Of a DNA stretch of 64,000 nt, positions 15,969 to 55,082 are shown piece after piece. The stretch is from a virus. The position numbers and the translations under genes were made by a program. Location of the stretch: IMG/VR virus record IMGVR_UViG_3300024054_000015, positions 16,046 through 80,045 of that record; one strand, written 5' to 3'. The notes below the pieces were generated by a model, which searched no databases, was not told the DNA's origin, and saw nothing but the letters and a program-made list of their open reading frames with translations. The stretch's first letter is position 1. Each line of letters begins with the position of its first letter.

Positions 15969-16102
15969 TGGCGCGCAAAATGGCTACAAGTGGCAGCGCG
16001 CGCGCACATATATGTTGTGTGCGCGCGCCGCCCCTGCCGGTCATTCACCATACAGACTCATAGAAAGTTTGGATAACATGGAAATACGACTATTGGAAAT
16101 AT

Positions 16103-38774: not shown

Positions 38775-39359
38775 GTGGAGACACCCTGGGAGCAGACTAT
38801 GAACGGATTGGTGTACGATCTGGAGATTGTCAAGGGTATCCCTTTAGGACATAAAGAAGAGGGTGTGGAGTACTGTGACGGATGGACAGACTATGCTAAC
38901 ATGGGCATCAGTGTTCTCTGTGCCTACGACTTCGTGAGCAAGTCTTTTAGGGTCTTCTGTCAGGACAACCTTCAGGAGTTCTTTGAGTTAGCAGCCCAAA
39001 GGGATCCATTGATTGGGTTCAACTCTGTAGGATTCGATAACAACGTCCTCTCATGCTTTGGTACTCTTCCAGAGGGTAAGGACTACTACGATATCCTTCA
39101 GGAGATCTATCGCACGGTTGGCAAAAGATTCAAGGGTAGTGGTCTTGATGCTATCTGTACTCTGAATGGGTTGGGTAGCAAGTCTGGAAATGGTGCTCTA
39201 GCTCCTGTGCAATGGCAGAGAGGGCAAATTGGTAGTGTCATTGATTACTGCTTGAGGGATGTAAGGCTTACGAGGGATCTCTTCGTCCTCAGTCAGAAGG
39301 CTATCATCAAGACTCCTAAGGGAAACCTCTCGTTGAGGAAGGTTGATGATGCTGATTAA
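38775..39359 (+). CDS. DEDD/RNase H-like 3'-5' exonuclease
   Basis: VYDLEI, IGFNSVGFD, LDAIC, DYCLRDV; alternative ATG 38799. Confidence 0.8.
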   Translation: METPWEQTMNGLVYDLEIVKGIPLGHKEEGVEYCDGWTDYANMGISVLCAYDFVSKSFRVFCQDNLQEFFELAAQRDPLIGFNSVGFDNNVLSCFGTLPEGKDYYDILQEIYRTVGKRFKGSGLDAICTLNGLGSKSGNGALAPVQWQRGQIGSVIDYCLRDVRLTRDLFVLSQKAIIKTPKGNLSLRKVDDAD

Positions 39360-39921
39360 CCCTTTCACTGGTCAAGTCTTGAATGCTAATCCAGAGGGGC
39401 ATAACCAGTATTGGAACCCTAATGGACCTTCTGCAGACTTCTCTCTGCCTCTGAAGCCCTCTATCTCTCCAGGAAGTCTATCGAGGGGGTTGGCTAAGAG
39501 AAGGTCTAGGGAGGCTATTCGCCTTCTTAAAGTTGCCTCTAGAGCTCCTGGCACAAGTCTTGATAAGTTCATGTCTAAAATGACTGGAGTTGACGCTGAT
39601 AGCCGAGTGGCTGAGGAAGCTAAGGATCAGCTAGAGAGACTTAGGAGTAGTAGAAAGCCCTCAAAACACGCTCTGGTTGCTAAGAAGCTCAGGGACATCT
39701 ACGAAAACGAGGAATTCCTCATGGTTGATGAGGCAGATGCCCTAAAGAGACTCTCCGGCGCAAATCAGAGAGCAGCAGATGCCTATGCCGTGGCTAAGAA
39801 GATTAGATCAAGGAGAAACGCCAGTAGTGGTCAATTCGTGAAGAAGAGTGGTGATTTGATTCCAGTTCAACCCTTCAATCAACCTTTCTGGACTCCTCGT
39901 GAGTACCCTGAACCTGACTAG
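39349..39921 (+). CDS. Putative internal head protein, NPFTG leader family #1
   Basis: MLINPFTGQVLN-ANPEGHNQY; basic helical body. Confidence 0.65.
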   Translation: MLINPFTGQVLNANPEGHNQYWNPNGPSADFSLPLKPSISPGSLSRGLAKRRSREAIRLLKVASRAPGTSLDKFMSKMTGVDADSRVAEEAKDQLERLRSSRKPSKHALVAKKLRDIYENEEFLMVDEADALKRLSGANQRAADAYAVAKKIRSRRNASSGQFVKKSGDLIPVQPFNQPFWTPREYPEPD

Positions 39922-40191: not shown

Positions 40192-40851
40192 ATGCCATCT
40201 GTGATTCTCAAGAAACGTGATCTTGATTCCTTGAATGATATGGAATTGAGATTCGTCAAGGCTTTGATCGCTGACGATCTTTGGAGACCTGTTCAGGCAG
40301 CTAGGACTGTTGGATATAAGAGCCCTTCATTAGCTGCTACGAGGTTGATGAAGAAGCCCGTAGTAGCAGCAGCCTTAGGAAGAGAACAACGTCGCAGATT
40401 AGAACGTCTTCAGTTGAAAGCTGATGAAGTTCTGCACATGCTCGCTACTGGACTCTTCTTCAATCCACTTTCACTCTTTAAGCCTTCTGCTGATGGAAAG
40501 TGGGTCGTAGAGGACTTGGACAAAGTCCCTGCGGAAATAGGACGTTGTGTAGAGGAAGTCAAGTGTCGTACTGTGGACAGTATGGACGACGATGGGAACG
40601 TGACTTCCACAACGTACTTTGAACTGAAGATGATGTCCAAGACGAAGCTCTTAGAGCTTGCGATGAAACACTGCGGAGTTGACGGCACGCAGAAGATAGA
40701 GCATACGGGCAATCTGGGTCTACAGATCGGCCTCAGCAATGGGATCAATGGGCTGCTGATGGCCATTGAGAACACACGCTCTTCCCAAGTGGTCGATGGT
40801 ACAGTGTTGGAGAAAGAGGTAACAGATGTTACTAATCAATCCGCTGACTAG
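40192..40851 (+). CDS. terS: Terminase small subunit
   Basis: RFVKALI..QAARTVGYKS..ATRLMKKP HTH; KTKLLELAMKH; position. Confidence 0.8.
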   Translation: MPSVILKKRDLDSLNDMELRFVKALIADDLWRPVQAARTVGYKSPSLAATRLMKKPVVAAALGREQRRRLERLQLKADEVLHMLATGLFFNPLSLFKPSADGKWVVEDLDKVPAEIGRCVEEVKCRTVDSMDDDGNVTSTTYFELKMMSKTKLLELAMKHCGVDGTQKIEHTGNLGLQIGLSNGINGLLMAIENTRSSQVVDGTVLEKEVTDVTNQSAD

Positions 40852-41299
40852 GCAAGTTCTAAACCACATGCAAGGAAGGCATGATCAGTCAGGACATGGA
40901 CAGGAGGCTTTGCCAGACAAGTTCTACAAGAAGAGAAGGGATTCTACTTCCAGTAGGTTGGCCAAGAGAATCTTTGAGGGACCATTTGACAGTTTTGAAG
41001 AGGCTGCTGCTCACTCGTACGTGTTGGATGACCTGGACACTAGGAAGTCTTCCCTGGATAAAGGCTTTCTGATGGGAGCTCATGGGAAAGCAATCCCTGT
41101 CACCAAAGGCTCTTATCTTCAGGAGGATATCACAGGAGGAAATGAGGGAGACATTCACGACTACAACAAGAGTGGAGATCGTATCCCTATAAGGCATAGG
41201 ATTGTCCCGGTAAGGAGTGTGGCAAAGCTCCGACCCAAAAGAGTGAACATGATGGCAGACGTGATAGCAGAACTTAGGCAGAGAAGGGGATTAGACTGA
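40826..41299 (+). CDS. Putative internal head protein, NPFTG leader family #2
   Basis: MLLINPLTRQVLN-HMQGRHDQSGHG. Confidence 0.6.
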   Translation: MLLINPLTRQVLNHMQGRHDQSGHGQEALPDKFYKKRRDSTSSRLAKRIFEGPFDSFEEAAAHSYVLDDLDTRKSSLDKGFLMGAHGKAIPVTKGSYLQEDITGGNEGDIHDYNKSGDRIPIRHRIVPVRSVAKLRPKRVNMMADVIAELRQRRGLD

Positions 41300-41689: not shown

Positions 41690-41896
41690 ATGGCTACGAT
41701 TCATCTAGCAGGTCCAATAGTAACTGTAGACAGCAGAGTCGTTCAGCGTTGTGCTGTCTGTGGACAGAAGCTAGTGGACTTGGACGCTTTCGAGCCAGGA
41801 AAGCCTGTAGTGGAAGAGGGCTGTCAGTTGAAGACAGTGCAGAACGTAGATATGTACCATAGCTCCGACCTGTGCGTGACCTTGGTGGAGAAATGA
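41690..41896 (+). CDS. Small Cys/His protein
   Basis: H..CAVCG..C. Confidence 0.5.
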   Translation: MATIHLAGPIVTVDSRVVQRCAVCGQKLVDLDAFEPGKPVVEEGCQLKTVQNVDMYHSSDLCVTLVEK

Positions 41897-42378
41897 CCAT
41901 GCTCATCAATCCGTTTACAGGTCAGGTACTCAACGTCAATCCACAGGGATACAATCAGTACACTGGAAAGGGTCCGGAGTCTAACAGGAAGAGACTTCAG
42001 CAGATCGCTGGAGATGATGTCCGTATTGAGTACAAGATCCCAGAGGCCTACGAGAAGAGCGTGAGGCTGTCTGGAGACTACTTTCCTCCAGAGGTAGACT
42101 GGGACACTGAAGAGGTAACGAAGCCAGCGACTATCTTTGTTTCTCCAGGCAGATACGAAGGTGCTATAGCTGCCCATGAGATAGGGCATCATAAGCTAGG
42201 TCACACGCAGGATGTGGAATACGAAGATGATGCAGAGAGCCGTGAAAGAGATGCCTGGCGATATGCTCTTAAGAACAGAAAGAGTATGGCAGTCTCTAAG
42301 AGGAAACTGTTCCGCCTTATGAGGACTGCTGAGGTTCTGGCTAAGAAGTCTAGAGGAACTTTCGGACCAGCTAAGTGA
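41893..42378 (+). CDS. Putative internal head protein, NPFTG leader family #3, with HExxH metallopeptidase motif
   Basis: MLINPFTGQVLN-VNPQGYNQY; AAHEIGHHKLGH...ERDAWRYA. Confidence 0.65.
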   Translation: MTMLINPFTGQVLNVNPQGYNQYTGKGPESNRKRLQQIAGDDVRIEYKIPEAYEKSVRLSGDYFPPEVDWDTEEVTKPATIFVSPGRYEGAIAAHEIGHHKLGHTQDVEYEDDAESRERDAWRYALKNRKSMAVSKRKLFRLMRTAEVLAKKSRGTFGPAK

Positions 42379-43976
42379 TCAACTCCGAAGCTGACCTACT
42401 CTCTGATCCCTTTAACTTTCTTGCTCTGTGTTGGCCAGACATCAAGCTGACCAAGCCGCAAGCCAAGATCGTACATAGCATTGTCCACAATCACACTACT
42501 GTCGTGCCTGCTGGCAACGATCAAGGCAAGGACTTTATTGCAGCCTTTATCTGCGTCTGGTTCTTCTGCTCTCGTAGCCCTTGCAAGATTGTGACCCATT
42601 CGGTAGATCAGCCTCAGCTTAAAGGCGTTCTCTGGGGCGAAATGAAGAGGTTTATTCAGACCTCGAGATATCCTCTGCCGCTGAACGTGCGTGAGGATAT
42701 GTTCATGCAGTTCGTGCGTCCTGATGGTACAGCCGATCCCTTGAGCTACCTCATTGGCCGTGTCACACGTAAGGGTGAGGGATTGCTGGGTCATCATATC
42801 GCTAACACAGAGAGCGATAGACTGCCCGATGGCTCTATGCTTCCTCGTACGCTGTTCGTAGCTGATGAAGCCAGCGGTATTGACGACGAGGCATGGGAGA
42901 AGGTGGACACCTGGAGTCATCGTAAGCTCGCTATCGGCAATCCCTATCCCACTACGAACTTCTTCTATAAGGCCACGAAGGCCGGAGATATCCCGCACCC
43001 CAGGCTCAAGGGACGTTTCCTTCAGAAGGTTATCCACATCGATTGCGATGATAGTCCGCACGTAGAGCGGGCTAAGTCGATGATGGACATTGGTCTAGAC
43101 CCTGATGACAAGGTCTTGATCCCAGGCATCCTCAGTTGGCAGGAATACGAGCGACGTCTCAAGGTCTGGGATGAGATGCGGCAGTGCATCGGCCTACATG
43201 GGAAGTTCTATGAAGGTCGTGAAGTCAAGCTATTTCCTCCCAACTGGCTAGACCGTGCTGAGGAAGTCGCTGAGAGGTTGCCGAAGGATCGCATAGGCAA
43301 AGCGATGGGAGTGGACGCTGCTGAAGGTGGCGATAACTCCGTGTGGTGCATAGTGGACGAGTTGGGCTTGATCTACATGGAGGCCCATAAGACAAATGAC
43401 ACAAATGATATTCCTGGACTTTCCATTGCCATCGGGAAGCGTTTCGGTGTTGCTCCTGAGCGTTGGGTATTCGATCGTGGGGGTGGCGGCAAGCAACATG
43501 CCGATCGGTTACGAGCAATGGGGTATGAGTGTGCTTCCATCGGTTTTGGTGAGGGTGTGGTAGATCCACAAGCCTGGAAGCGTACTGCGGACTATATCCC
43601 GAAGAAAGAAGTGCGGGAGGCTACAGAAGAGAGGTACATCTACAAGAACCGTAGAGCCGAGATGTACGGCACGCTTAGGCTTGCATTAGATCCGACTGTG
43701 TTGCAAAATGGCTTCGGGCTACCAAAAGAGTTGATTCGGGTGAAACGGTTGGACGGTGGACCTTCCCTCAGAGATCAGTTAGAGATACTACCGCTGCTCT
43801 ACGATCCTGAGGGAAGGCTCTACTTGCCGCCTAAGCAGAAGAAGAATGCGGACGACAAAACAGTCACGATCAAAGATATGCTGGGCGACTATAGCCCAGA
43901 CGAGGCAGACGCGCTTGTGCTCGCCTGCTATGGAATGACCTTTAAGAGTCCTCCAGTCATCAGGAGTATGATATGA
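42375..43976 (+). CDS. terL: Terminase large subunit
   Basis: PAGNDQGKDF Walker A-like, FVADEASG Walker B, IGNP, GVDAAEGGDNSV nuclease, SPDEADAL. Confidence 0.9.
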   Translation: MINSEADLLSDPFNFLALCWPDIKLTKPQAKIVHSIVHNHTTVVPAGNDQGKDFIAAFICVWFFCSRSPCKIVTHSVDQPQLKGVLWGEMKRFIQTSRYPLPLNVREDMFMQFVRPDGTADPLSYLIGRVTRKGEGLLGHHIANTESDRLPDGSMLPRTLFVADEASGIDDEAWEKVDTWSHRKLAIGNPYPTTNFFYKATKAGDIPHPRLKGRFLQKVIHIDCDDSPHVERAKSMMDIGLDPDDKVLIPGILSWQEYERRLKVWDEMRQCIGLHGKFYEGREVKLFPPNWLDRAEEVAERLPKDRIGKAMGVDAAEGGDNSVWCIVDELGLIYMEAHKTNDTNDIPGLSIAIGKRFGVAPERWVFDRGGGGKQHADRLRAMGYECASIGFGEGVVDPQAWKRTADYIPKKEVREATEERYIYKNRRAEMYGTLRLALDPTVLQNGFGLPKELIRVKRLDGGPSLRDQLEILPLLYDPEGRLYLPPKQKKNADDKTVTIKDMLGDYSPDEADALVLACYGMTFKSPPVIRSMI

Positions 43977-44575
43977 GCAAAGAGCCAATCGTGAATCCGT
44001 TTACTGGAGAAGTGGTGGCGAACTTCAGTCTTAGGGGAATCGGAGAGGTATTTGACCTGGGAAGGAAGGCCCAGAAGCTCGGTCAGATGGCAGGAACTAA
44101 GTCAGGTGCGGTTGAGTCCAGGTGGGCTAAACTTCGCGGTAAAGACGCTGGTCTCTCTAGGAGAGCTTCCAGAAGGATCTACCGAGCCGGTGCTGGAACC
44201 CAGAAGGCCATAGAAGCCGCGAAGAAGCACTCCTTCAAGACGGGAGTGGCGACTGGTGCGGTTGCTGGTGCTGCCTCTACAGGAGCCGCCATGAAGTACT
44301 CCAAGTCCAAGAAGAAGCAGATGGCTCACAACATCCTCGGCATGGCTCTGGGAAAGGTCAGGAACCCTCTGCAAGATGCCCTCACCAAACCCTTCCGCAA
44401 GAAGAAGACCACTGTCGGTGGCGTGCTGAAGGGCGGACTCACAGGCGTTAGGAACGAGAGCCATCTTGGCCTCATTACGCCTTCCAAGGCTAGGAAGCGT
44501 AAGCTCATCTCTTCTGCAGAGCAAGATGCCAAGAAGAGGGGATTGGTCCTCAAGCCCGTCGGGAGCTTCAGATGA
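43973..44575 (+). CDS. Putative internal head protein, NPFTG leader family #4 (basic, Gly/Ala-rich)
   Basis: IVNPFTGEVVAN; internal MAHN and GVRN sites. Confidence 0.6.
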   Translation: MSKEPIVNPFTGEVVANFSLRGIGEVFDLGRKAQKLGQMAGTKSGAVESRWAKLRGKDAGLSRRASRRIYRAGAGTQKAIEAAKKHSFKTGVATGAVAGAASTGAAMKYSKSKKKQMAHNILGMALGKVRNPLQDALTKPFRKKKTTVGGVLKGGLTGVRNESHLGLITPSKARKRKLISSAEQDAKKRGLVLKPVGSFR

Positions 44576-44760: not shown

Positions 44761-44985
44761 GTGGACAAGCCTAAGACCATTGCTGACCTGGGCGACAACA
44801 CCGAACGTGATAAGCCCATTATCGGCAAGTCCATGATAGACCATGGACCTAAGTCGGTAAGTCGTCGCATTGAGGAAGCCCAGAAGCGGCATGAGGAAGA
44901 GCAGAAGCTGCTAGAGGCTGGCGGCTATGACTATGGCGGCACAGAGGCTTTCGAACGAGCCATGAGGAACGTGGGGAGATGGTGA
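44761..44985 (+). CDS. Small hypothetical protein
   Basis: Tiled ORF with GGAG RBS. Confidence 0.5.
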   Translation: MDKPKTIADLGDNTERDKPIIGKSMIDHGPKSVSRRIEEAQKRHEEEQKLLEAGGYDYGGTEAFERAMRNVGRW

Positions 44986-45515
44986 TGATTCTAGTCAATC
45001 CATTCACTGGCCAAGTGCTTATCAACGCCAACCCTAGAGGCGACAATCAGTACATCAATCCCGATGGGCCTAGCCAGAAGCCTGTTAGAACAGCGAAGCA
45101 TCTCGTTAAACGTCTGACTGCTGGCGTGCTAGGACCTGTCTCGGCAGATCGTGTTGCTGGATTTGCACTGCCTGACGACAGTCTAGTGGGAGGCCTGGGC
45201 AAGATGCATGAGGATCTGGTGCGAGAGGATCCTGAGAAGTTCGGAATGGACAGAGGAGACATGCCAAGAGATCCAGTGGCCAAGGCTATCTCCAAGGGAG
45301 CCATACGCTTTCGTGGAGTTTCCCTAGAGCTCGACTCTAGCAGACACACTCCAGGGAAGATTGGCATGATGATCTCCAGCGGTAAGTTGCCCTCTACTAC
45401 CGAAGGTCATGTCTACATTGACTCTGCAGACTTCAATGGTGCAGCCCATGTGGATGAGTTGCTGATGGCCAAGTCTTGGAGACATCTAGCTTACGGGAAG
45501 AAAAGACTAAGATAA
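44985..45515 (+). CDS. Putative internal head protein, NPFTG leader family #5
   Basis: MILVNPFTGQVLIN-ANPRGDNQY. Confidence 0.65.
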   Translation: MILVNPFTGQVLINANPRGDNQYINPDGPSQKPVRTAKHLVKRLTAGVLGPVSADRVAGFALPDDSLVGGLGKMHEDLVREDPEKFGMDRGDMPRDPVAKAISKGAIRFRGVSLELDSSRHTPGKIGMMISSGKLPSTTEGHVYIDSADFNGAAHVDELLMAKSWRHLAYGKKRLR

Positions 45516-45525
45516 GGAAATAAGA

Positions 45526-48144
45526 ATGCCCACAGCAGAACGCAAGCGCCTGGCCTTGGAGCAGATGGCCAACTCCAAAGACTTCGTCATGAACGCTGAG
45601 TTCCAGGCCAAGTTCTTAGACCTCGTGCAAAACGAGTTCCTTAGTCGTGGAGCTTTCATTCAACGCTGGATGGACCCACGTCGGGACTACAACCGTGAGT
45701 GCGGCTATCCCGAGACGTATGAGATCACCAGTGAGAAGTGGCAGGACTACTACGAACGTCATCCCATTGCTGCCCGCGTTGTGGAGATCATGCCTAGCGA
45801 GTGCTGGCAGATAACGCCAGATCTGTACGAGGTTGATGACCCCAACGTCAACACTCCGTTCGAACAGGGCTTTAAGGACTTGGCTGGGGACCTGCGTGGA
45901 GTCCAGTCGTACTACAAGCCTGAGGAAGAGGTCGTGCATCCGCTGTGGGAGTACTGCCGACGGCTAGACATTCTCTCAGGAATTGGTCAGTTCGGTGTGA
46001 TGCTGCTAGGGTACGACGATGGCATTTCCCTGAACCAACCTGTAGAGGGTTGGCAAGAGCCAGAGGTAGGGAACATCACCTGGAACCAAGAGGCACTGCC
46101 TTTCCTCAGAGAGTTGTCCAAGCACTTCCATATCACCGCTAACGGTGAGCTAATATGGAATGCACCAACTCCCGATGAAGAAGAGCAGTTGAAGAAAAAG
46201 TCCAAGTCTGTGCCTGAGGCAACTAACGGCAAGAAGCCCAAGGAGAAGAAGGTCACCGACAAGGAGAACATGCAGAGCTCAGAAGGCTATCTGCCTCCAG
46301 AGCCTACAGGGAAGTCCATGCCTAGTCCTGCGGCCTTCGGTAATGTCAACCCGCAGCAGGGAAAGTATCACGATCCCATGGACCCAGAGGCTTTGAAGGA
46401 CATCCAGCCTCAAGGGCCAGAGCAGCCAGAGTTTGGGGACTTTACTACTGAGGACCAACGCCAACAGCCAGGAATGCAGACCGCTCCCACAGGCAGACGT
46501 AGGCTGATCTATGTGCGAGTGTTCCCCGAGGCGTTAGTGCAGATCATGCGATACGAGCAGAACATGGCGAGTCCACGCTTTGGACAGCCTACCATGTATC
46601 GCATCACGCTCAATGACCCCATGCAGAACCAGACGGGAGTGGGACTGCCTCTAAGCACCATTGAGGTCCACTACTCGCGGGTTATTCACGCTGCTGATTT
46701 GGGAGCTAATGCCGGATCTAGTGAAATCTTCGCTCCTCCTCGCATGAGGCCGGTGCTGAACAACCTCATCGATCTACAGAAGATCTATGGAGCTTGCGGG
46801 GAAGGCTACTGGAAGAACGCTTTCGCAACGCTGGCAGCAGAGACACATCCTCAACTCGGTGGAGATGTTACTCTGGACGTAGAAGCCATGCGGGAGCAGA
46901 TGAAGAAGTGGAGAGATAGCCTGGATCGTGTGCTGGCAGCTACGGGCGTCACTTGGAGGACTATCAGCCCGCAACTGATTGATCCCAATAGCTACGTGCA
47001 GAATCACCTGACTGCCATTTGCATCAAGCTCGGCTGTCCGTTGCGAGTGTTCATGGGCAGCGAACAAGGAGTGTTGGCCGCGAGCCAGGACTCGTACTCT
47101 TGGGGATTGCGAGTTCAAGAGCGTCGCAAGAACTACCTGACTCCTCGGCTAATCGTGCCGTTGATTGACAGACTCATCACCGTAGGCGTGCTGCCTGCTC
47201 CGCAAGAGTCGTACATGGTCAACTGGAACGATGAGCAGAAGCTGACTCCTCAGGAGCAGGCGAGCATCGGTGGAGCAATCACTGGAGCGATGGCAACCTA
47301 CATCAGTGGCCAAGTTGACCAACTGATTGAGCCTGTGACCTGGATGACAGAGGTTCTGGGCTGGAATAGGGAGAAGGCTCAGTCTGTGGTAGATGCCACG
47401 ATGGAGCATATCCTCAAGCAGCAAGAGCAGCAGGCGATGCAGGGGCAGCAGATGATTGACCCCATGACGGGTCAGCCCATGCAGCAGGACGAGATGGGAC
47501 AGTTCATTGATCCCAATACGGGCGAGCCTGCTCCGACAGATGAGATGGGCAAGCCGATGGTGATGGATCCCAATACTGGACAACCGATGCCCGCTCAGCC
47601 TCAGTCGCCACAAGAGAGCCAAGGCCCGCTAGGGGCAGAGGCTTCAGAGGCCGCTCAGGTTAGCCAAGAGATGGATCCTGGAGTTGAGGCACCAGAAGAG
47701 CAGATGGAACCCGAGGAAGAAGAGTTGCCCACAGACCCCGACTCTGGGTTGATGATCGACGAGGAAGCAGGACTAGCTCTTGATCCAGAGACAGGTGACG
47801 TGTACGACATAGAGACTGGAGAAGTAGTAGGGAACGTGAACGATGATGAGCAATATGCTGACGAGTTTGATCAGGAGCAACCGGATCAAGAAGATGGTTC
47901 TGAACTGGAAACTGAAGAACCCGAGGACGGCTTTGAAGACATGGAAGGTGATCAAGAGCTTGGTCAAGAAGACCCGATGGAAGAAGCCCAGGAGCCAGAA
48001 CATCAGATAGATCCAGAAACGGGTCGCATCGTTAACCCTGAGAATGGCTATCAGCTTGATCAGGAAACGGGCGACATCTACACACCTGAAGGCGAGTTGT
48101 GGGGAAATATCAATGACGAGGATGACCAGGAAGAGATGGAATAG
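45526..48144 (+). CDS. Portal protein (DUF1073-like) with internal insertion and long acidic repeat tail
   Basis: YYERHPIAARVVE, SPRFGQPTMY, VHYSRVIH, PLRVFMG; position after terL. Confidence 0.85.
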   Translation: MPTAERKRLALEQMANSKDFVMNAEFQAKFLDLVQNEFLSRGAFIQRWMDPRRDYNRECGYPETYEITSEKWQDYYERHPIAARVVEIMPSECWQITPDLYEVDDPNVNTPFEQGFKDLAGDLRGVQSYYKPEEEVVHPLWEYCRRLDILSGIGQFGVMLLGYDDGISLNQPVEGWQEPEVGNITWNQEALPFLRELSKHFHITANGELIWNAPTPDEEEQLKKKSKSVPEATNGKKPKEKKVTDKENMQSSEGYLPPEPTGKSMPSPAAFGNVNPQQGKYHDPMDPEALKDIQPQGPEQPEFGDFTTEDQRQQPGMQTAPTGRRRLIYVRVFPEALVQIMRYEQNMASPRFGQPTMYRITLNDPMQNQTGVGLPLSTIEVHYSRVIHAADLGANAGSSEIFAPPRMRPVLNNLIDLQKIYGACGEGYWKNAFATLAAETHPQLGGDVTLDVEAMREQMKKWRDSLDRVLAATGVTWRTISPQLIDPNSYVQNHLTAICIKLGCPLRVFMGSEQGVLAASQDSYSWGLRVQERRKNYLTPRLIVPLIDRLITVGVLPAPQESYMVNWNDEQKLTPQEQASIGGAITGAMATYISGQVDQLIEPVTWMTEVLGWNREKAQSVVDATMEHILKQQEQQAMQGQQMIDPMTGQPMQQDEMGQFIDPNTGEPAPTDEMGKPMVMDPNTGQPMPAQPQSPQESQGPLGAEASEAAQVSQEMDPGVEAPEEQMEPEEEELPTDPDSGLMIDEEAGLALDPETGDVYDIETGEVVGNVNDDEQYADEFDQEQPDQEDGSELETEEPEDGFEDMEGDQELGQEDPMEEAQEPEHQIDPETGRIVNPENGYQLDQETGDIYTPEGELWGNINDEDDQEEME

Positions 48145-48354
48145 AGCCAAGTGGCTAGGGATGCTAGGACGCGATCAGGAGGAGCTCCACCAACGCGAAA
48201 GGTTAGAAACGGGACAAGACCCGGACGAGTACACGATCTGGCACGTTCTGTGCCCTGCCATACGAAAGGGCTGGACGAAAGCTATGGAGCGTGACAGAAG
48301 GGCCTATGGTCGTAGGCTGGCAGTTACGATTCAAGAAGTCTCTGGCAAATCGAC

Positions 48355-49347
48355 ATGAGCATCCTTCGCGTAGACCCCACTCGCACTACTAGACTTCGTC
48401 GTCAGTTCACTAGTGCGATTAACGTGCGGTTCACCATGTTCAAGAAGGACCTATTGCATCTGTTTCAGCATGGAATGCTGGGCATGGTCCGCCCTACCCT
48501 TAACGCCGAGTGGACCTTTCCCACAGAGCATAAGCTGCAAGAGCTCAAGCGATGGCTTCAGTTTAAGACTGGTCAGCTATTCCTAAAGAACTATATGGAG
48601 GACTCTGCACAGTCTTGGGTTGGGGAGTACATACAGCAGTCGTACCAGCGAGGCTTGAAGAGATCTTGGGGCGACTGGCGTAGGCCGACTCAGGTTATGA
48701 CCATGCCTGGAGACGTAGGAGCTATCTTCCAGAAGGGTGGCGAAGCAGAGTTTATGCGGCAGTCTTTTGGTGGACCTATTCCTGTAGAGAAGGTAAGACT
48801 ACTCTCAACACGCACCTACAGTGACTTGGCTAACGTCACAGAGCAGATGTCCGCACAGATCTCTCGAACTCTGCTGGACGGTGCTGTTAGTGGACTCAAT
48901 CCCCGCAAGGTCGCCAAGCAACTGTCTAAGCTCGTAGACATGAGTAAGGGTCGGGCCTACATGGTCGCCCAGACAGAGACGATCAGGAGCTTTAACGAGG
49001 GAGCCTTAGATGGATTGGAGAACCTGGGAGCTAAGGCTGTAGGCGTGATGGTGGAATGGTCCGTGTCAGGGCTGGGCTACACCGAAAAGGGCTATCCTTC
49101 ACCCTGCAAGAAGTGTGCCCCTTTGGCGGGACTGGTGCTGACCGTTGATGAGGCTAGAGGGATGCTGCCTCGGCATCCGCGTTGTCGGTGCAGTTTCATA
49201 CCCGCGAACGTAGGAGAAAAGACCGCCAAGCAAGTCCGTGATGCTGAACGCATACGAGCGGCCATTGCCCGTTCTGCTAGTGGTGACACCCGTTGGATTG
49301 GAGCAAGTAAGACTATCTCTTCAGAAAGACCAGTGGAGGCCTCATGA
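48355..49347 (+). CDS. MuF/SPP1 gp7-like head morphogenesis protein
   Basis: DPTRTT, RAYMVAQTETIR, CKKC..LPRHPRCRC. Confidence 0.85.
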   Translation: MSILRVDPTRTTRLRRQFTSAINVRFTMFKKDLLHLFQHGMLGMVRPTLNAEWTFPTEHKLQELKRWLQFKTGQLFLKNYMEDSAQSWVGEYIQQSYQRGLKRSWGDWRRPTQVMTMPGDVGAIFQKGGEAEFMRQSFGGPIPVEKVRLLSTRTYSDLANVTEQMSAQISRTLLDGAVSGLNPRKVAKQLSKLVDMSKGRAYMVAQTETIRSFNEGALDGLENLGAKAVGVMVEWSVSGLGYTEKGYPSPCKKCAPLAGLVLTVDEARGMLPRHPRCRCSFIPANVGEKTAKQVRDAERIRAAIARSASGDTRWIGASKTISSERPVEAS

Positions 49348-49667: not shown

Positions 49668-52600
49668 ATGAACATTCCACGAGAAATGTCTCCAAAGTCG
49701 TACAGGCTGGTTTCGTCAATTCTCCACAATGAATGGAGTGATGAAGCCCGGAAGAAGTCTGCCGAGTCTAGGAAGCGCAAAGCCCAACAGCGTGGATCTT
49801 GGTTAGGGTCTACAGCGAAGGCTGTGGGCAAGGCTGGGCTGATCGCCGGTGGAGTAGTCGCTGGAGGACTCCTTGGGGGAAGGATAGCTCCTAGAGTCTT
49901 CGGTAAGGGAAGACTAGCTAGGGTTGGAGAGAACCTCACCGGAAAGGTCGTCTACACCGTTCCGCCTAAGAACTTGGAAGGATTCGAGAAGTGGTCTATA
50001 GGGGCTGCAATTCCAGTCGGTAGGAAGCGGAGTCTAGGCTCGGTACTGGAAGAACAGGGCAAAAGAGCTGGACTCAGAGGAAGAGTTGCCAGAAGACTCA
50101 GTGCCATAGAGAAGTGGTTCGGGATCCCTGAACGACATTACGGTGTTGGCACTGACAAGGGTCACGTGACTCACTTCTCTCCGCATGGAGTAAAGAAGCA
50201 CACCAAAGGTGAGTTCGGGGCCTACTGGTCTGAAAGAATGTCAGATCGCGAGCCTCGTAACATCTGGGTTGTGGACGAGGGTCTGGTAAGCGGAAAGAAG
50301 GGAAGTGTAAGGAAGGCAGAGCTCGCTGCGGTTAAGTCCAGGCTTGCAGCTAGGAGAAACTGGAGAGGCAGAGAACTTAGATGCCTTGGCAAGAAGAACT
50401 GCGAGACCTTCGCTAGAGAGATCTCCAGCGGCAGAAAGCAGTACAAGAGCCGATTGGCTCTTACAGGTGCAGCCGGAATCGCAGGTGGTGGAACCACTGG
50501 TGGAGCGGTCACTGGAGCCGCTACCCTACTCGGCGGGAAGAAAAAGAAGGACTCCAAGAGAAGGATGGTCAGAAACGTCCTACAAGTGATCAACGGTGGT
50601 CCAGGCTCAGGCTTCCGTGGGCACAAGGGAAGACCGGGTCAAAGGGGTGGGTCAGCTCCGGAAGGTGGCGGAATGCTGGGATCGACTACTTATAGACCAG
50701 CTTCGCTTCCATTGTCAGAGTCTCCTCAGGCTCGAGCCAAGCGAATTAAGCTGATCTACACTAAGGCCTCTAGACTGGCCGATGTGTACGGGGATCATGC
50801 GAACAAGCTCGAGCAGAAGAGGCGCAGCAAGCTCCTTCCGCTGAACAGGCGAGAACTGATCGATCTGTTGGAAGCCCACAAGAACGCTGCTGACAACTTC
50901 CGGGCGAGTGCCGAGCAGTCTACCTTGGTCAAGAGATTCACTCCCGAGCAGCAACTCCAACGCTTGGAGCAGGCGAGTCGTCACGAGGAGATGGCAGCTA
51001 AATACCTCAAGAGGCTAAACCGTGAGATCCCAGGTAAGGACTTCGTTAAGGCTGTGGGCAAGACATTCCTCGGAGAACTGGTTGGGGATCTTCCTTCAGA
51101 GATTGGTCGCATGGGTGCGGACATCACTAGGGAATCGATCCGAGGCGGCTTCAAGTCTTTGGTCGGTAAGAGCCCTTCGCTGGGCAAGTTTGGAGAGGGT
51201 GTCTTTAAGGGTGGAAAGGCCAAGGCCGAGGAGTACAAGAATTCAATCCTAGAAGGCGGAAGGATTAGGGACAAGTCCAAAATGCTGAGAGCCGCCATGG
51301 AAGAGGTCAAGAGGCTTCAAGCTATCGACAAGAACATCAAGAAGCAACTCCATGCTCTTGGTGGTCGGGTCAGTCGAGGCAAGCCTAAGTCAGCTTCCGA
51401 GAAGCCGAAGCAATTCAGTGCAGACGCTATTCGGAAAGCTCTAATCGAGGCCGCTAATCAGAAGCTGGCTGATGCCGAAGAGAGGGTTCTGGCCTCGAAT
51501 GAGTTCACAGCCCTGGTGTCTAACCTTGAAGGTCAGGTGCGTCGGGAAACGCTGCACGACCGCGAGTATCTAGTGGCACCCCTAACGATGATCGTTCCAG
51601 GCGTCTTGGCAGGAAGCAAAGGCCCACTTCTATACCCAGAAGAGGAAGTTGCTAAGAACCCGAGCGCCTGGAACGGTATGCCCATCGTGGTCAATCACCC
51701 GATGAAAGACGGGATGCCGGTAGAGGCTCGCAACCCTGCCATCCTCAATCAGTACCAGATCGGTACTGTCTTCAACACCAAGTACAACGGCAAGCTCGTA
51801 GCTGAGGGCTGGTTCGACGTGGACCGCACTCGCAAGACCAACATCGGCATCTACGAGCAGTTGGTCAACAACCGGCCGATTGAGTTGAGTACGGGTCTGT
51901 ACACGGACAACGAGTCCTCTGAGGGAACCTGGAACGGTCGCCCTTATAGCTACGTGGCTCGCAACTATCGCCCGGATCATCTGGCGATCTTGCTGGGCTC
52001 CAAAGGTGCTTGCAGCATTAAGGACGGCTGTGGAGTGCTGATCAACGAAACTGATCCCGTAACCAACATCGTCCAGAAGACTGGTGGAGGCTACAAGCTC
52101 GTCAGCCATAAGGGCAAGAACCTCGGCACGGCCAAGACTAAGGCTGGTATCCTCAAGCGTGAGCGTCAGGTGGAGTACTTCAAGCACGTGAGAAACGAAG
52201 TGCGAGAAGTGATAGACCTCATCAACAACGGTCCCTATCGTGCTGCCGCAGGAAGCTTGTGGAAGGCTGTCAAGTTAGGTGGTGGTCAGGCCATTAAGGA
52301 CGTGCTGGGAGTTGCCAAGAAGACATCTAAGACTAGAAGGTTTATCAAGAAGTTCCCGAAGACTTCTACAGCCGTAGCTGCCGGTGGAATCGGTTATGCT
52401 GCTGGAAAGCGTAAGAGGAGCCAGACGAACAATGCCCTCAAGGCTGGGATCGTAAACATACCCTTCATCAGCAAGAACCGTGCCAAGGCTCGGCGTCAAG
52501 TCGCTGGCTTTGCTGGAGGGGCGGCTGCTGGAGCCTATGGCACAGTCAAGGGTGCTGCTATAGGAACCGCTGTAGGTGGACCAGTTGGAGGGATTATAGG

Positions 52601-53153
52601 AGGGGCTGCTGGTGGTGCGACTGGAGCCTGGGGCGCTCGCAAGATTGCCAAGAGACTTGGCGGTAGCAGTGCTGAGTCCGGTGCAGACCTGGGAGGCCTA
52701 GCAGGTACGTTCGCTCCCATAGGTTCTGGGGCTGCTAGAGCCGCTGGAGCAGCCGTTAAAGCTTCCAGAACCAAAAGGATTATCGGCGGTGCTGGAAGAT
52801 TGGGTGCAGATTATGCAGCTTATGAGGGAACTACTAGAGGTCTGGATAAGCTGGCTTCAAAGTTCAGCAGACGTAGGAAACGCTCTGTGGTAAGTAATGC
52901 CTGGACTGAGGAAGCCCGCCGCAAGTCGCTAGAGACCCGTAGGCGTCATGCTGTAGGTGGAACTGATATTGGATTGGGGATAGCTGGCGGCATGGCTGTG
53001 GGAAAGATTGGGTCGAAACTGGTAGAGCCTGAAATCGACGCAGCGGTGGACAGAATCCGACAGGCTATCATCAGGTCTTTTAAGGATGTGAAGAGGAATC
53101 CGGGTCTTGGTCGTAGAGTGATCAGGCTTCTCAAGTCAATCAGGAGAGTCTAA
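49668..53153 (+). CDS. Head polyprotein: LRAT-like domain + DUF2213 prohead protease + multiple basic/Gly-zipper modules
   Basis: Protease ~51510-52045 (WNGMPIVVNHP, IELSTGLY, PDHLAIL, GACS); HYG...NCETFA LRAT motif; repeated hydrophobic-X-N junctions. Confidence 0.8.
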   Translation: MNIPREMSPKSYRLVSSILHNEWSDEARKKSAESRKRKAQQRGSWLGSTAKAVGKAGLIAGGVVAGGLLGGRIAPRVFGKGRLARVGENLTGKVVYTVPPKNLEGFEKWSIGAAIPVGRKRSLGSVLEEQGKRAGLRGRVARRLSAIEKWFGIPERHYGVGTDKGHVTHFSPHGVKKHTKGEFGAYWSERMSDREPRNIWVVDEGLVSGKKGSVRKAELAAVKSRLAARRNWRGRELRCLGKKNCETFAREISSGRKQYKSRLALTGAAGIAGGGTTGGAVTGAATLLGGKKKKDSKRRMVRNVLQVINGGPGSGFRGHKGRPGQRGGSAPEGGGMLGSTTYRPASLPLSESPQARAKRIKLIYTKASRLADVYGDHANKLEQKRRSKLLPLNRRELIDLLEAHKNAADNFRASAEQSTLVKRFTPEQQLQRLEQASRHEEMAAKYLKRLNREIPGKDFVKAVGKTFLGELVGDLPSEIGRMGADITRESIRGGFKSLVGKSPSLGKFGEGVFKGGKAKAEEYKNSILEGGRIRDKSKMLRAAMEEVKRLQAIDKNIKKQLHALGGRVSRGKPKSASEKPKQFSADAIRKALIEAANQKLADAEERVLASNEFTALVSNLEGQVRRETLHDREYLVAPLTMIVPGVLAGSKGPLLYPEEEVAKNPSAWNGMPIVVNHPMKDGMPVEARNPAILNQYQIGTVFNTKYNGKLVAEGWFDVDRTRKTNIGIYEQLVNNRPIELSTGLYTDNESSEGTWNGRPYSYVARNYRPDHLAILLGSKGACSIKDGCGVLINETDPVTNIVQKTGGGYKLVSHKGKNLGTAKTKAGILKRERQVEYFKHVRNEVREVIDLINNGPYRAAAGSLWKAVKLGGGQAIKDVLGVAKKTSKTRRFIKKFPKTSTAVAAGGIGYAAGKRKRSQTNNALKAGIVNIPFISKNRAKARRQVAGFAGGAAAGAYGTVKGAAIGTAVGGPVGGIIGGAAGGATGAWGARKIAKRLGGSSAESGADLGGLAGTFAPIGSGAARAAGAAVKASRTKRIIGGAGRLGADYAAYEGTTRGLDKLASKFSRRRKRSVVSNAWTEEARRKSLETRRRHAVGGTDIGLGIAGGMAVGKIGSKLVEPEIDAAVDRIRQAIIRSFKDVKRNPGLGRRVIRLLKSIRRV

Positions 53154-54368: not shown

Positions 54369-55082
54369 ATGGCCAGAATGACTTTGAACCAAGCAGAGAG
54401 GCGAGAGTTGATCTCGTCAATGGTCACCAACTGCGCTGGTTGGGACAAAGAGGACTTGGACATTCTTCACAACATGAGCGACGACAAGCTCTGGGTCCAT
54501 GCCCGAGGCTGTGCGCAGTTGATCGCCAATGAGGAAGAAGACGCCGGTGACCTTAGCGACGAAATCGAACCCTCGGCTGCGACAGAGTTGGAAAGCTCTG
54601 CCACAGAAGGGCTTGAGGATGAAGAGGTTGATGGCAATCAGGGTGAGCAAGGTCCACCCGCTGTGGAGCCTGACGCCGAGACCAAGGATCAACCCAAGAA
54701 GTGTTGGGATGAGGAAGGAAACGAGACCTCTTGCCCCGAAGAAACGGCTGATGGTGAAAACGTGACTGAAAACCAATACCTGAACTTTCTGCCGCCTCGT
54801 ATCCGCAGCGTGGTCGTCAACGCCATCAAGTTTGAGCAGGCCCAGAAAGCTCAGTTGGTTGGTTCCATCACGGCCAACAGTCGCAACCGCTTCAGTTCTC
54901 AGTACCTGATGCGCATGAGCTTGGACGAACTCCAGGCTCTGGCGGATCTGGCCTCGCCTCGTCGTTCGAATCAGCTTTATGTTGGAGCCGCTGGCGGTCC
55001 GGTTCTCAACCAGTCGGACGTTGACCGCGAAGACATTCTGACTGTTCCGACTCTCGAGTTCACCATGAGCTCGAAGGGTTGA
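54369..55082 (+). CDS. Putative capsid scaffold protein
   Basis: Acidic, helical; directly upstream of decoration and capsid genes; AAGGAG RBS. Confidence 0.6.
   Translation: MARMTLNQAERRELISSMVTNCAGWDKEDLDILHNMSDDKLWVHARGCAQLIANEEEDAGDLSDEIEPSAATELESSATEGLEDEEVDGNQGEQGPPAVEPDAETKDQPKKCWDEEGNETSCPEETADGENVTENQYLNFLPPRIRSVVVNAIKFEQAQKAQLVGSITANSRNRFSSQYLMRMSLDELQALADLASPRRSNQLYVGAAGGPVLNQSDVDREDILTVPTLEFTMSSKG

Follow-up and report, generated by a model that had tools for sequence, protein, structure and literature searches.

A small clade of phage portal proteins carries an acidic C-terminal tail with OCRE-like repeat modules

Why does a phage portal protein end in a long, extremely acidic tail of DPxTG-type repeats, and what might such a tail contribute to the assembly of the head? 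The question is raised by a portal gene (P0002, 872 aa, about 97 kDa) located at 45526–48144 (+) of a 64,000-nucleotide stretch of viral DNA, hereafter the window, which covers positions 16,046 to 80,045 of the IMG/VR virus record IMGVR_UViG_3300024054_000015 (80,045 bp, rated complete by CheckV). A first-pass annotation of the window, made from the sequence alone, had proposed that the tail carries about ten hairpin units, that the same unit recurs as a short leader at the N-terminus of neighboring "cargo" proteins, and that it docks this cargo onto the portal or binds a partner common to both. Here, our analysis revealed that the tail is an organized modular architecture and not random low-complexity sequence. 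Portal C-terminal extensions and OCRE-type repeats are each already known.

The tail-bearing open reading frame (ORF) is a phage portal protein, as the first-pass annotation had assumed. Profile searches matched it to PF06381 with 52 bits (cut-off 33.8) and to phrog_146 at 6e-38, and its own sequence profile retrieved the Sf11 portal with an E-value of 1e-29, in a match that stops approximately 36 residues short of that chain's C-terminus. A full-length AlphaFold2 (AF2) model, built from an 80-sequence alignment with a predicted template modeling score (pTM) of 0.58, resembled the solved portals of Sf11 (9yin, the best match, 1e-18), FCWL1, Pam3, and T1, with E-values from 1e-18 to 5e-10. The gene lies in a head-packaging module in which terS (40174) and terL (42375) precede the portal gene and a MuF-like gene (48355), a protease-containing polyprotein gene, and a capsid protein gene follow it. 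In the full-length AF2 model, the canonical portal fold ends with the last crown helix (residues 615–638, 47368–47439 (+)), and the tail starts directly past this helix. Since 45526–48144 is a single uninterrupted frame, an origin of the tail from another ORF or through a frameshift was ruled out.

The tail itself corresponds to 47455–48144 (+), that is, the final 229 codons of the portal ORF (residues 644–872) plus the stop codon, and all ten motif strings listed by the first-pass annotation are present in its translation. Their number far exceeds what the composition of the tail would yield: the strict form [DN]Px[TSN]G occurs seven times, compared with a mean of 0.04 and a maximum of 2 in 20,000 composition-preserving shuffles of the tail, and a looser form occurs ten times, compared with a shuffle mean of 0.56. 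Aspartate and glutamate make up 34% of the tail while lysine and arginine account for 1%, resulting in a net charge of −72 per chain and of about −860 when summed over a dodecamer. At the DNA level, no tandem repeat was found in the tail coding region, and the motif copies are only 71–88% alike over 17 nt. Recent DNA slippage was thereby ruled out as the origin of the repeats, and the repetition is thus old and has been maintained at the protein level. A calcium-binding or RTX-like reading of the tail was also rejected, because the DxDxDG and GGxGxD signatures are absent from the sequence.

To describe the internal organization of the tail, we modeled it by AF2 twice, once alone with a 17-sequence alignment and once within the whole protein with the 80 sequences, and conservation was assessed as the mean identity in the clade on an alignment of 17 portals (P0002 and 16 relatives). 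Module A (residues 644–700, 47455–47625 (+)) comprises three DPxTG(Q/E)P repeats spaced 17–19 residues apart, followed by a P/Q-rich stretch ending in the conserved GPLGAEA, and was modeled with a predicted local distance difference test (pLDDT) score of 60–82. Its identity of 71% is close to the 76% of the portal core, and G649, P651, Q654, D662, E673, G675, and P689 are invariant. Acidic linker 1 (residues 701–733, 47626–47724 (+); 36% D/E, 40% identity, pLDDT mostly below 50) connects it to module B (residues 734–773, 47725–47844 (+); 55% identity), where four octads of the form xDxxTGxx, at D737, D745, D753, and D761, are followed by the invariant pair G769–N770 and are predicted to fold into an OCRE-like β-meander of four strands (pLDDT 89–95). 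Downstream of the hyper-acidic linker 2 (residues 774–825, 47845–48000 (+)), which is 50% D/E with a net charge of −26, varies in length, and shows 22% identity and a pLDDT of 35–37, lies module C (residues 826–866, 48001–48123 (+); 57% identity, pLDDT 88–96). This second octad-repeat β-meander consists of units at D829, N837, and D845 plus a TPEG unit, with two to five predicted strands, and is followed by the acidic C-terminal end DQEEME and the stop codon (48124–48144 (+)). When module C was used as a profile, module B came up at 4e-12, which identifies B and C as duplicates, and the cross-match of module A to either is weak. The module–linker layout is kept across the 17 portals of 40–66% identity, with many invariant G, P, and D positions. 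With identities of 71, 55, and 57%, modules A, B, and C are more conserved than the linkers (40 and 22%; core, 76%), which indicates that the modules are under purifying selection. The β-hairpin or turn nature of the units, which had been guessed from the motif, is therefore predicted by AF2 and backed by the OCRE matches described below. DPETG, the turn of the designed ten-residue hairpin chignolin (GYDPETGTWG) (PMC9054626), occurs twice in the tail, which fits with an autonomous formation of hairpins by analogy with that peptide.

Sequence and structure comparisons agreed on OCRE as the closest known counterpart of modules B and C. In the OCRE fold, octamer repeats form a sheet of six strands, whose tyrosine-rich face binds proline-rich peptides; the fold serves protein–peptide recognition (PMC5127646). 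The Pfam OCRE profile (PF17780) matched residues 737–765 of P0002 with 21.5 bits, below its cut-off of 24.7, and matched 12 of the 17 clade portals at E ≤ 0.01, with a best value of 3.4e-10. A Foldseek search with the tail model returned no significant match; its best matches were the OCRE domains of RBM10 and RBM5, at a root-mean-square deviation (rmsd) of 1.3–1.5 over 28 columns and an E-value of 1.6. In an exhaustive VIA-align comparison with module B, the RBM5 and RBM10 OCRE domains again ranked first, with Z-scores of 3.6 and 3.4 over 44 residues, 25–27% identity, and an rmsd of 3.1. These structural scores are weak because the module is tiny, yet both kinds of evidence point to the same fold. 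As in the OCRE domains of RBM5 and RBM10 (5mfy, 5mf9, and 2mxw), the portal modules display an 8-residue period, D-P-x-T/S-G turns, and a small predicted antiparallel β-meander, and modules B and C contain tandem imperfect octamer repeats, of which OCRE has about five. In contrast to OCRE, they lack the tyrosine-rich triplets that form the surface for proline-rich motifs: module B contains one tyrosine, module C two tyrosines and one tryptophan, and the clade consensus holds one or two aromatics per module. The portal tail further differs in its extreme acidity, its viral origin, its presumed location inside the capsid, and its sub-cut-off Pfam score. As modeled, modules B and C are thus OCRE-like in architecture, without the known OCRE binding surface.

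How widespread is this tail? A search of 5.8 billion proteins identified 16 further portal clusters, 40–66% identical to P0002, that carry an acidic tail with three to eight strict motifs, while approximately 100 more distant PF06381 portals contain none or one. Profile searches of genome contigs retrieved distant portals alone (22–36% identity), all of them without the tail. A scan of IMG/VR with the tail pattern recovered a relative of the window phage (L003) and two P22-family portals whose motifs do not constitute homologous tails. As judged by these sequence searches, the repeat tail occurs only in a single small clade of portals. The repeat unit, in contrast, is not: in an exhaustive HMMER search with the tail among 1.84 billion representatives, the 23 matches were either fragments of portals of the same clade or OCRE-type repeats in unrelated bacterial proteins, whose Pfam labels include a TrbI conjugation protein, weakly labeled TPS and PilM-like proteins, and subtilases with WW-like repeats. 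Because such repeats also occur in these bacterial proteins, the tail unit is a generic repeat module, and the trait specific to the clade is the recruitment of this generic OCRE-type repeat to the portal tail. Among PDB sequences, phmmer found no match to the tail, a search of the ESM Atlas gave no usable match, and the literature searches turned up no paper that connects portals with OCRE domains or with acidic repeat tails. The two P22-family portals (PF16510, approximately 620 aa; L092, 75–1952 (−), and L093, 75–1934 (−)) contain a DPxTGQP-x11-DPxTGEP pair with the spacing of module A, located inside the portal body at approximately residues 459–490 and not in a tail. Such a hairpin pair could have arisen convergently or could be an ancient part of portals.

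At the position of the tail, other PF06381 portals carry acidic or Pro/Gln-rich linkers, such as poly-Glu in P0025 or DxxGNPLP repeats, and proteins of the family range from 498 to 1484 aa in length. Fused domains are often found past those linkers, with precomputed Pfam labels of ART-PolyVal, ADP-ribosyl exotoxin, ATLF, topoisomerase I, and sigma70_r2. Since relatives carry linkers or fused domains there, the C-terminus of PF06381 portals appears to be a general anchoring site for material inside the capsid, and the fusions suggest, from their domain labels, portal-tethered effector cargo. The window clade shares with these portals the family, the attachment point after the crown, and often an acidic or Pro-rich linker. 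However, in the relatives enzymatic or effector domains are covalently fused, whereas the tail of this clade consists of repeat modules only and displays no enzymatic signature. Large C-terminal fusions were seen in the distant portals P0039, P0040, P0072, P0093, P0100, and P0107, and also in the tail of L119.

The second element of the question is the leader. The leader strings INPFTGQV and VNPFTGEVV are real and form the N-termini of ORFs starting at 39349, 41899, 43973, and 44985, and a degenerate version, INPLTRQV, occurs at 40826. In total, five genes of the window open with (M)LINPFTGQVLN or variants of it (39349, 40826, 41893/41899, 43973, and 44979/44985), each preceded by a GGAG-like site, and the codons differ among the leader copies. 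The first (39349–39921 (+)) begins with MLINPFTGQVLN... and encodes a protein with an isoelectric point (pI) of 9.9; the second (40826–41299 (+)) bears the degenerate leader (MLLINPLTRQVLN; pI 9.7); the third (41893–42378 (+), phrog_87) has an HExxH metalloprotease motif in its body; the fourth (43973–44575 (+)) bears PIVNPFTGEVV and a net charge of +32; and the fifth (44979–45515 (+), MILVNPFTGQVLIN) lies directly upstream of the portal gene. Apart from the leader, the protein bodies are mutually unrelated, and all are basic (pI 9.0–11.4). Leaders were also found in relatives: three in L003, one in L004, and three in L109, whose portals are 65, 59, and 56% identical to that of the window, respectively.

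Several further observations concern these leader proteins. The HExxH motif of the third reads HEIGHHKLGH, its match to phrog_87 is at 5e-5, and its gene is directly upstream of terL and overlaps the terL start. In L003 (4847–5553) and L004 (9228–9362), the NPFT leader continues straight into N-(A)-W-T-[DE]-x-A-R-K-A-S...RKRK, and the same N-(A)-W-T motif occurs in the polyprotein of the window, both at its N-terminus (49668–49790, HNEWSDEARKKS) and near its C-terminus (approximately 52890–52960, VVSNAWTEEARRKS). Since the two motifs are joined in the relatives and separate in the window, NPFT and N-(A)-W-T combine modularly, always after hydrophobic-x-Asn. The leaders of L109, at 456, 1978, and 5499 (MTTLVNPLTRQVIN, MILCNPFTGQVIN, and MIYVNPFTGEFIVN), are each followed by a cysteine motif, SYF(S)EC(E/P)RD(D/E)EGRC, which is absent from the leader proteins of the window.

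Leader and tail share the skeleton hydrophobic-[D/N]-P-x-T-G-[Q/E]-[V/L/P]-hydrophobic, and at the sequence level this resemblance is real, limited to a turn motif of approximately nine residues. The conserved positions differ. Among nine aligned leaders from three phages, N, P, T, and a downstream N are invariant, while the phenylalanine is present in eight and the glycine in five (replaced by R in three and Q in one). Among 158 tail units from the 17 portals, where the glycine is fixed by the way in which the units were collected, the first position is Asp in 94% and the equivalent of the phenylalanine is always polar or small. When profiles of the tail modules were run over 1831 translated segments, leaders were the best non-portal matches for modules A and C, with no single match reaching significance (E-values of 0.6 for the third leader with module C and 7.3 for the fifth with module A); with the module B profile, all five Gly-bearing leaders fell within the top 18, and the R- and Q-bearing leaders did not score. 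The claim that both are the same unit is therefore doubtful: the shared turn skeleton stands, whereas the different conserved positions, the non-significant profile matches, and the generic character of the OCRE-type repeat speak against identity. The co-occurrence that the docking proposal would entail was observed. Four tail-bearing loci have usable flanking sequence (the window, L003, L004, and L109), and each of them encodes at least one leader, a count that leaves out L110–L112, where the flanks are too short, and P0004, P0008, P0014, P0016, and P0017. No N-terminal NPFT or NPLT leader was found in approximately 150 loci (about 1.9 Mb in total) around tail-less PF06381 portals, approximately 40 of which, from IMG/VR, extend at least 4 kb upstream of the portal. 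Across IMG/VR, a scan for INPFTGQVLN gave no match, a scan with the leader alignment gave 43 pattern matches of which none was confirmed as a leader, and hydrophobic-[IV]NPFTG[QE]V gave 15 matches, every one of them inside an unrelated ORF rather than at an N-terminus as a leader. A leader without the tail, which would have spoken against docking, was thus never found in these searches. As all positive loci belong to one clade, however, the co-occurrence counts as one evolutionary event and does not provide independent support.

A third line of evidence is charge. Against the −72 of the tail, the leader proteins carry +3 to +32 and two Gly-rich proteins +14 and +37, while the MuF-like minor head protein encoded directly after the portal (48355–49347 (+); PF04233, phrog_758) carries +18 and the 1161-aa polyprotein with an embedded DUF2213 prohead-protease-like domain (49668–53153 (+)) carries +116. 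The proposal that the acidic tail complements basic cargo is hence in line with the charges calculated here, and the MuF-like protein and the polyprotein, the latter through electrostatics, are candidate partners of the tail.

What, then, would the tail do? In solved portals the crown faces the capsid lumen, and since the tail follows the crown, twelve tails should hang inside the head. We tentatively favor a role, slightly short of probable in our estimate, as an intracapsid multivalent tether that recruits basic internal proteins while the procapsid nucleates; the lumenal location, the partners, and the timing are all inferred, and what the results establish is the anatomy of the tail, its conservation, its predicted fold, and the charges. 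According to this proposal, the clade would have exchanged covalently fused cargo for a multivalent non-covalent tether, resembling beads on an acidic string and present in 12 copies. On the inside of the portal vertex, the flexible tails would provide a platform where basic internal proteins (candidates being the polyprotein with its protease-like domain, the MuF-like protein, and the small leader proteins) could be gathered and organized, with the acidic linkers supplying long-range electrostatics and the folded knobs short-range specific contacts. Recruitment would take place while the procapsid nucleates on the portal. Several points weigh against this role. The lumenal placement is taken over from general knowledge of portals; the structural likeness of the modules to OCRE is weak (Foldseek E-value of 1.6, VIA Z-score of 3.6); the tyrosine-rich surface by which OCRE binds its ligands is missing; and the putative scaffold protein (54369–55082) is itself acidic, with a net charge of −27, so that not every head-assembly protein would be attracted by the tail.

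Other explanations were weighed against recruitment. The tail might instead act on DNA, as a polyanionic brush at the inner mouth of the portal with the hairpin modules as stiffeners or spacers. Such a brush could push packaged DNA away, leave the channel and the DNA end packaged last unobstructed, or tune packaging or ejection. The extreme charge of the chain and the dodecamer agrees with it, and so do the many other PF06381 portals whose tails are acidic or Pro/Gln-rich yet free of DPxTG motifs, which makes acidity the more general trait of the family. However, a pure charge brush would not need the nearly core-level conservation of module A or the invariant positions of modules B and C, and the enzymatic domains fused at the same position in relatives point to the handling of cargo rather than DNA; we consider the brush unlikely, with a real chance of being correct. 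Alternatively, the tail could be a scaffold-like domain required for assembly only, which aids procapsid nucleation and is then cut by the DUF2213-type protease and expelled before or during packaging, as modeled on the fate of scaffolds and capsid delta domains. Several features are consistent with this scenario: the prohead-protease-like domain is encoded three genes downstream, the composition of the tail resembles that of the acidic putative scaffold, and approximately 300 kDa of extra polypeptide per virion would presumably otherwise compete with DNA for space. Portal proteins are, moreover, trimmed in other phages. A conserved cleavage motif at the crown–tail junction was not identified, though, and we regard this scenario, which is compatible with recruitment, as unlikely.

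The docking idea of the first-pass annotation, in which the NPFT(G) leader equals the hairpin unit of the tail and docks onto it, for instance as an additional strand along the open edge of an OCRE-like meander, would make the portal tail the receptor of a capsid-targeting signal, unless both bind a common partner. The shared skeleton, the top non-portal ranking of leaders in the module profiles, the co-occurrence in four loci, and the complementary charges all speak for it, but several points weigh against it: the leader preserves N-P-F-T and the tail preserves Asp with a polar residue in place of the phenylalanine, the profile matches lack significance (E-values of 0.6–7), the loci represent a single clade and event, and OCRE-type units are also present in unrelated bacterial proteins, where such leaders are lacking. 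The T4 precedent, furthermore, targets the scaffold core and not the portal. Docking of the leader on the tail is therefore possible but not favored, and in this form it appears quite doubtful. The more specific version, in which the OCRE-like knobs or module A are the receptor of the NPFT leader and tagged proteins enter the procapsid by being captured non-covalently on the 12 tails, we likewise hold to be improbable. Lastly, the tail could be without specific function, an expansion of low-complexity sequence that is particular to this lineage and is tolerated because the C-terminus is free. The linkers do vary in length and sequence, and the trait is restricted to a small clade (23 matches in 1.84 billion representatives); however, modules that are conserved in position, with invariant residues at 40–66% portal identity, 71% identity in module A, and confidently predicted folds, render this explanation very improbable.

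Comparison with known systems places the recruitment proposal in context. The loading of defined internal or ejected proteins is understood in few model phages, including the targeting sequence of T4 and the ejection proteins of P22 and T7. The P22 portal possesses a long α-helical coiled-coil C-terminal barrel around which ejection proteins are found. Like that barrel, the tail described here would project past the crown into the capsid and would be associated with internal or ejection proteins, whereas it consists of acidic disordered linkers and small β-modules with short helices only in the AF2 model and belongs to another Pfam family. In T4, a capsid-targeting sequence leads the internal proteins IPI–III to the scaffold core and is then cleaved, and no portal receptor is known for it. 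As in T4, a short N-terminal leader recurs on several small basic proteins that are otherwise unrelated, and the gene for a prohead protease lies close by; in T4 signal cleavage and packaging are known, whereas for the leader proteins of this phage the pointers are gene position and basic pI. The SPP1 portal gp6 binds the MuF-like minor head protein gp7 and is devoid of such a repeat tail; in the window, too, a MuF-like gene with a basic product directly follows the portal gene.

The PF06381 family thus seems to use the lumenal C-terminus of the portal as a general attachment point, for fused enzymes in the relatives and for an acidic tether with knobs here. If the tail does recruit basic proteins, it would provide a simple and transferable handle through which proteins of choice could be packaged into capsids, and would be the first assigned role of OCRE-type repeats in a virus. 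Were it the receptor of the leader, it would constitute a portal-centered capsid-targeting system, the non-covalent counterpart of the fused effector domains. Should it prove to be only an acidic spacer, it would amount to a minor structural variant of the portal.

Three minor observations concern the portal gene and its surroundings. Within the portal, a Pro-rich insertion (residues 226–319, 46201–46482 (+)) with 14% proline, a pLDDT below 50, and 45% identity in the clade is predicted to be disordered. These 94 residues hold a conserved island, AFGNxNPQQGKYRDPMD, and the insertion could be a ligand of the OCRE-like modules. Among the homologs, the PF06381 portal P0031 bears the NCBI name "anti-CBASS Acb1 family protein," apparently a label carried over with the Pfam family and not one based on functional tests. 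Finally, an 81-codon basic ORF in another frame (48113–48358) fills the 210-nt gap between the portal and MuF-like genes and overlaps the final 30 nt of the portal gene; it may be a small gene or spurious.

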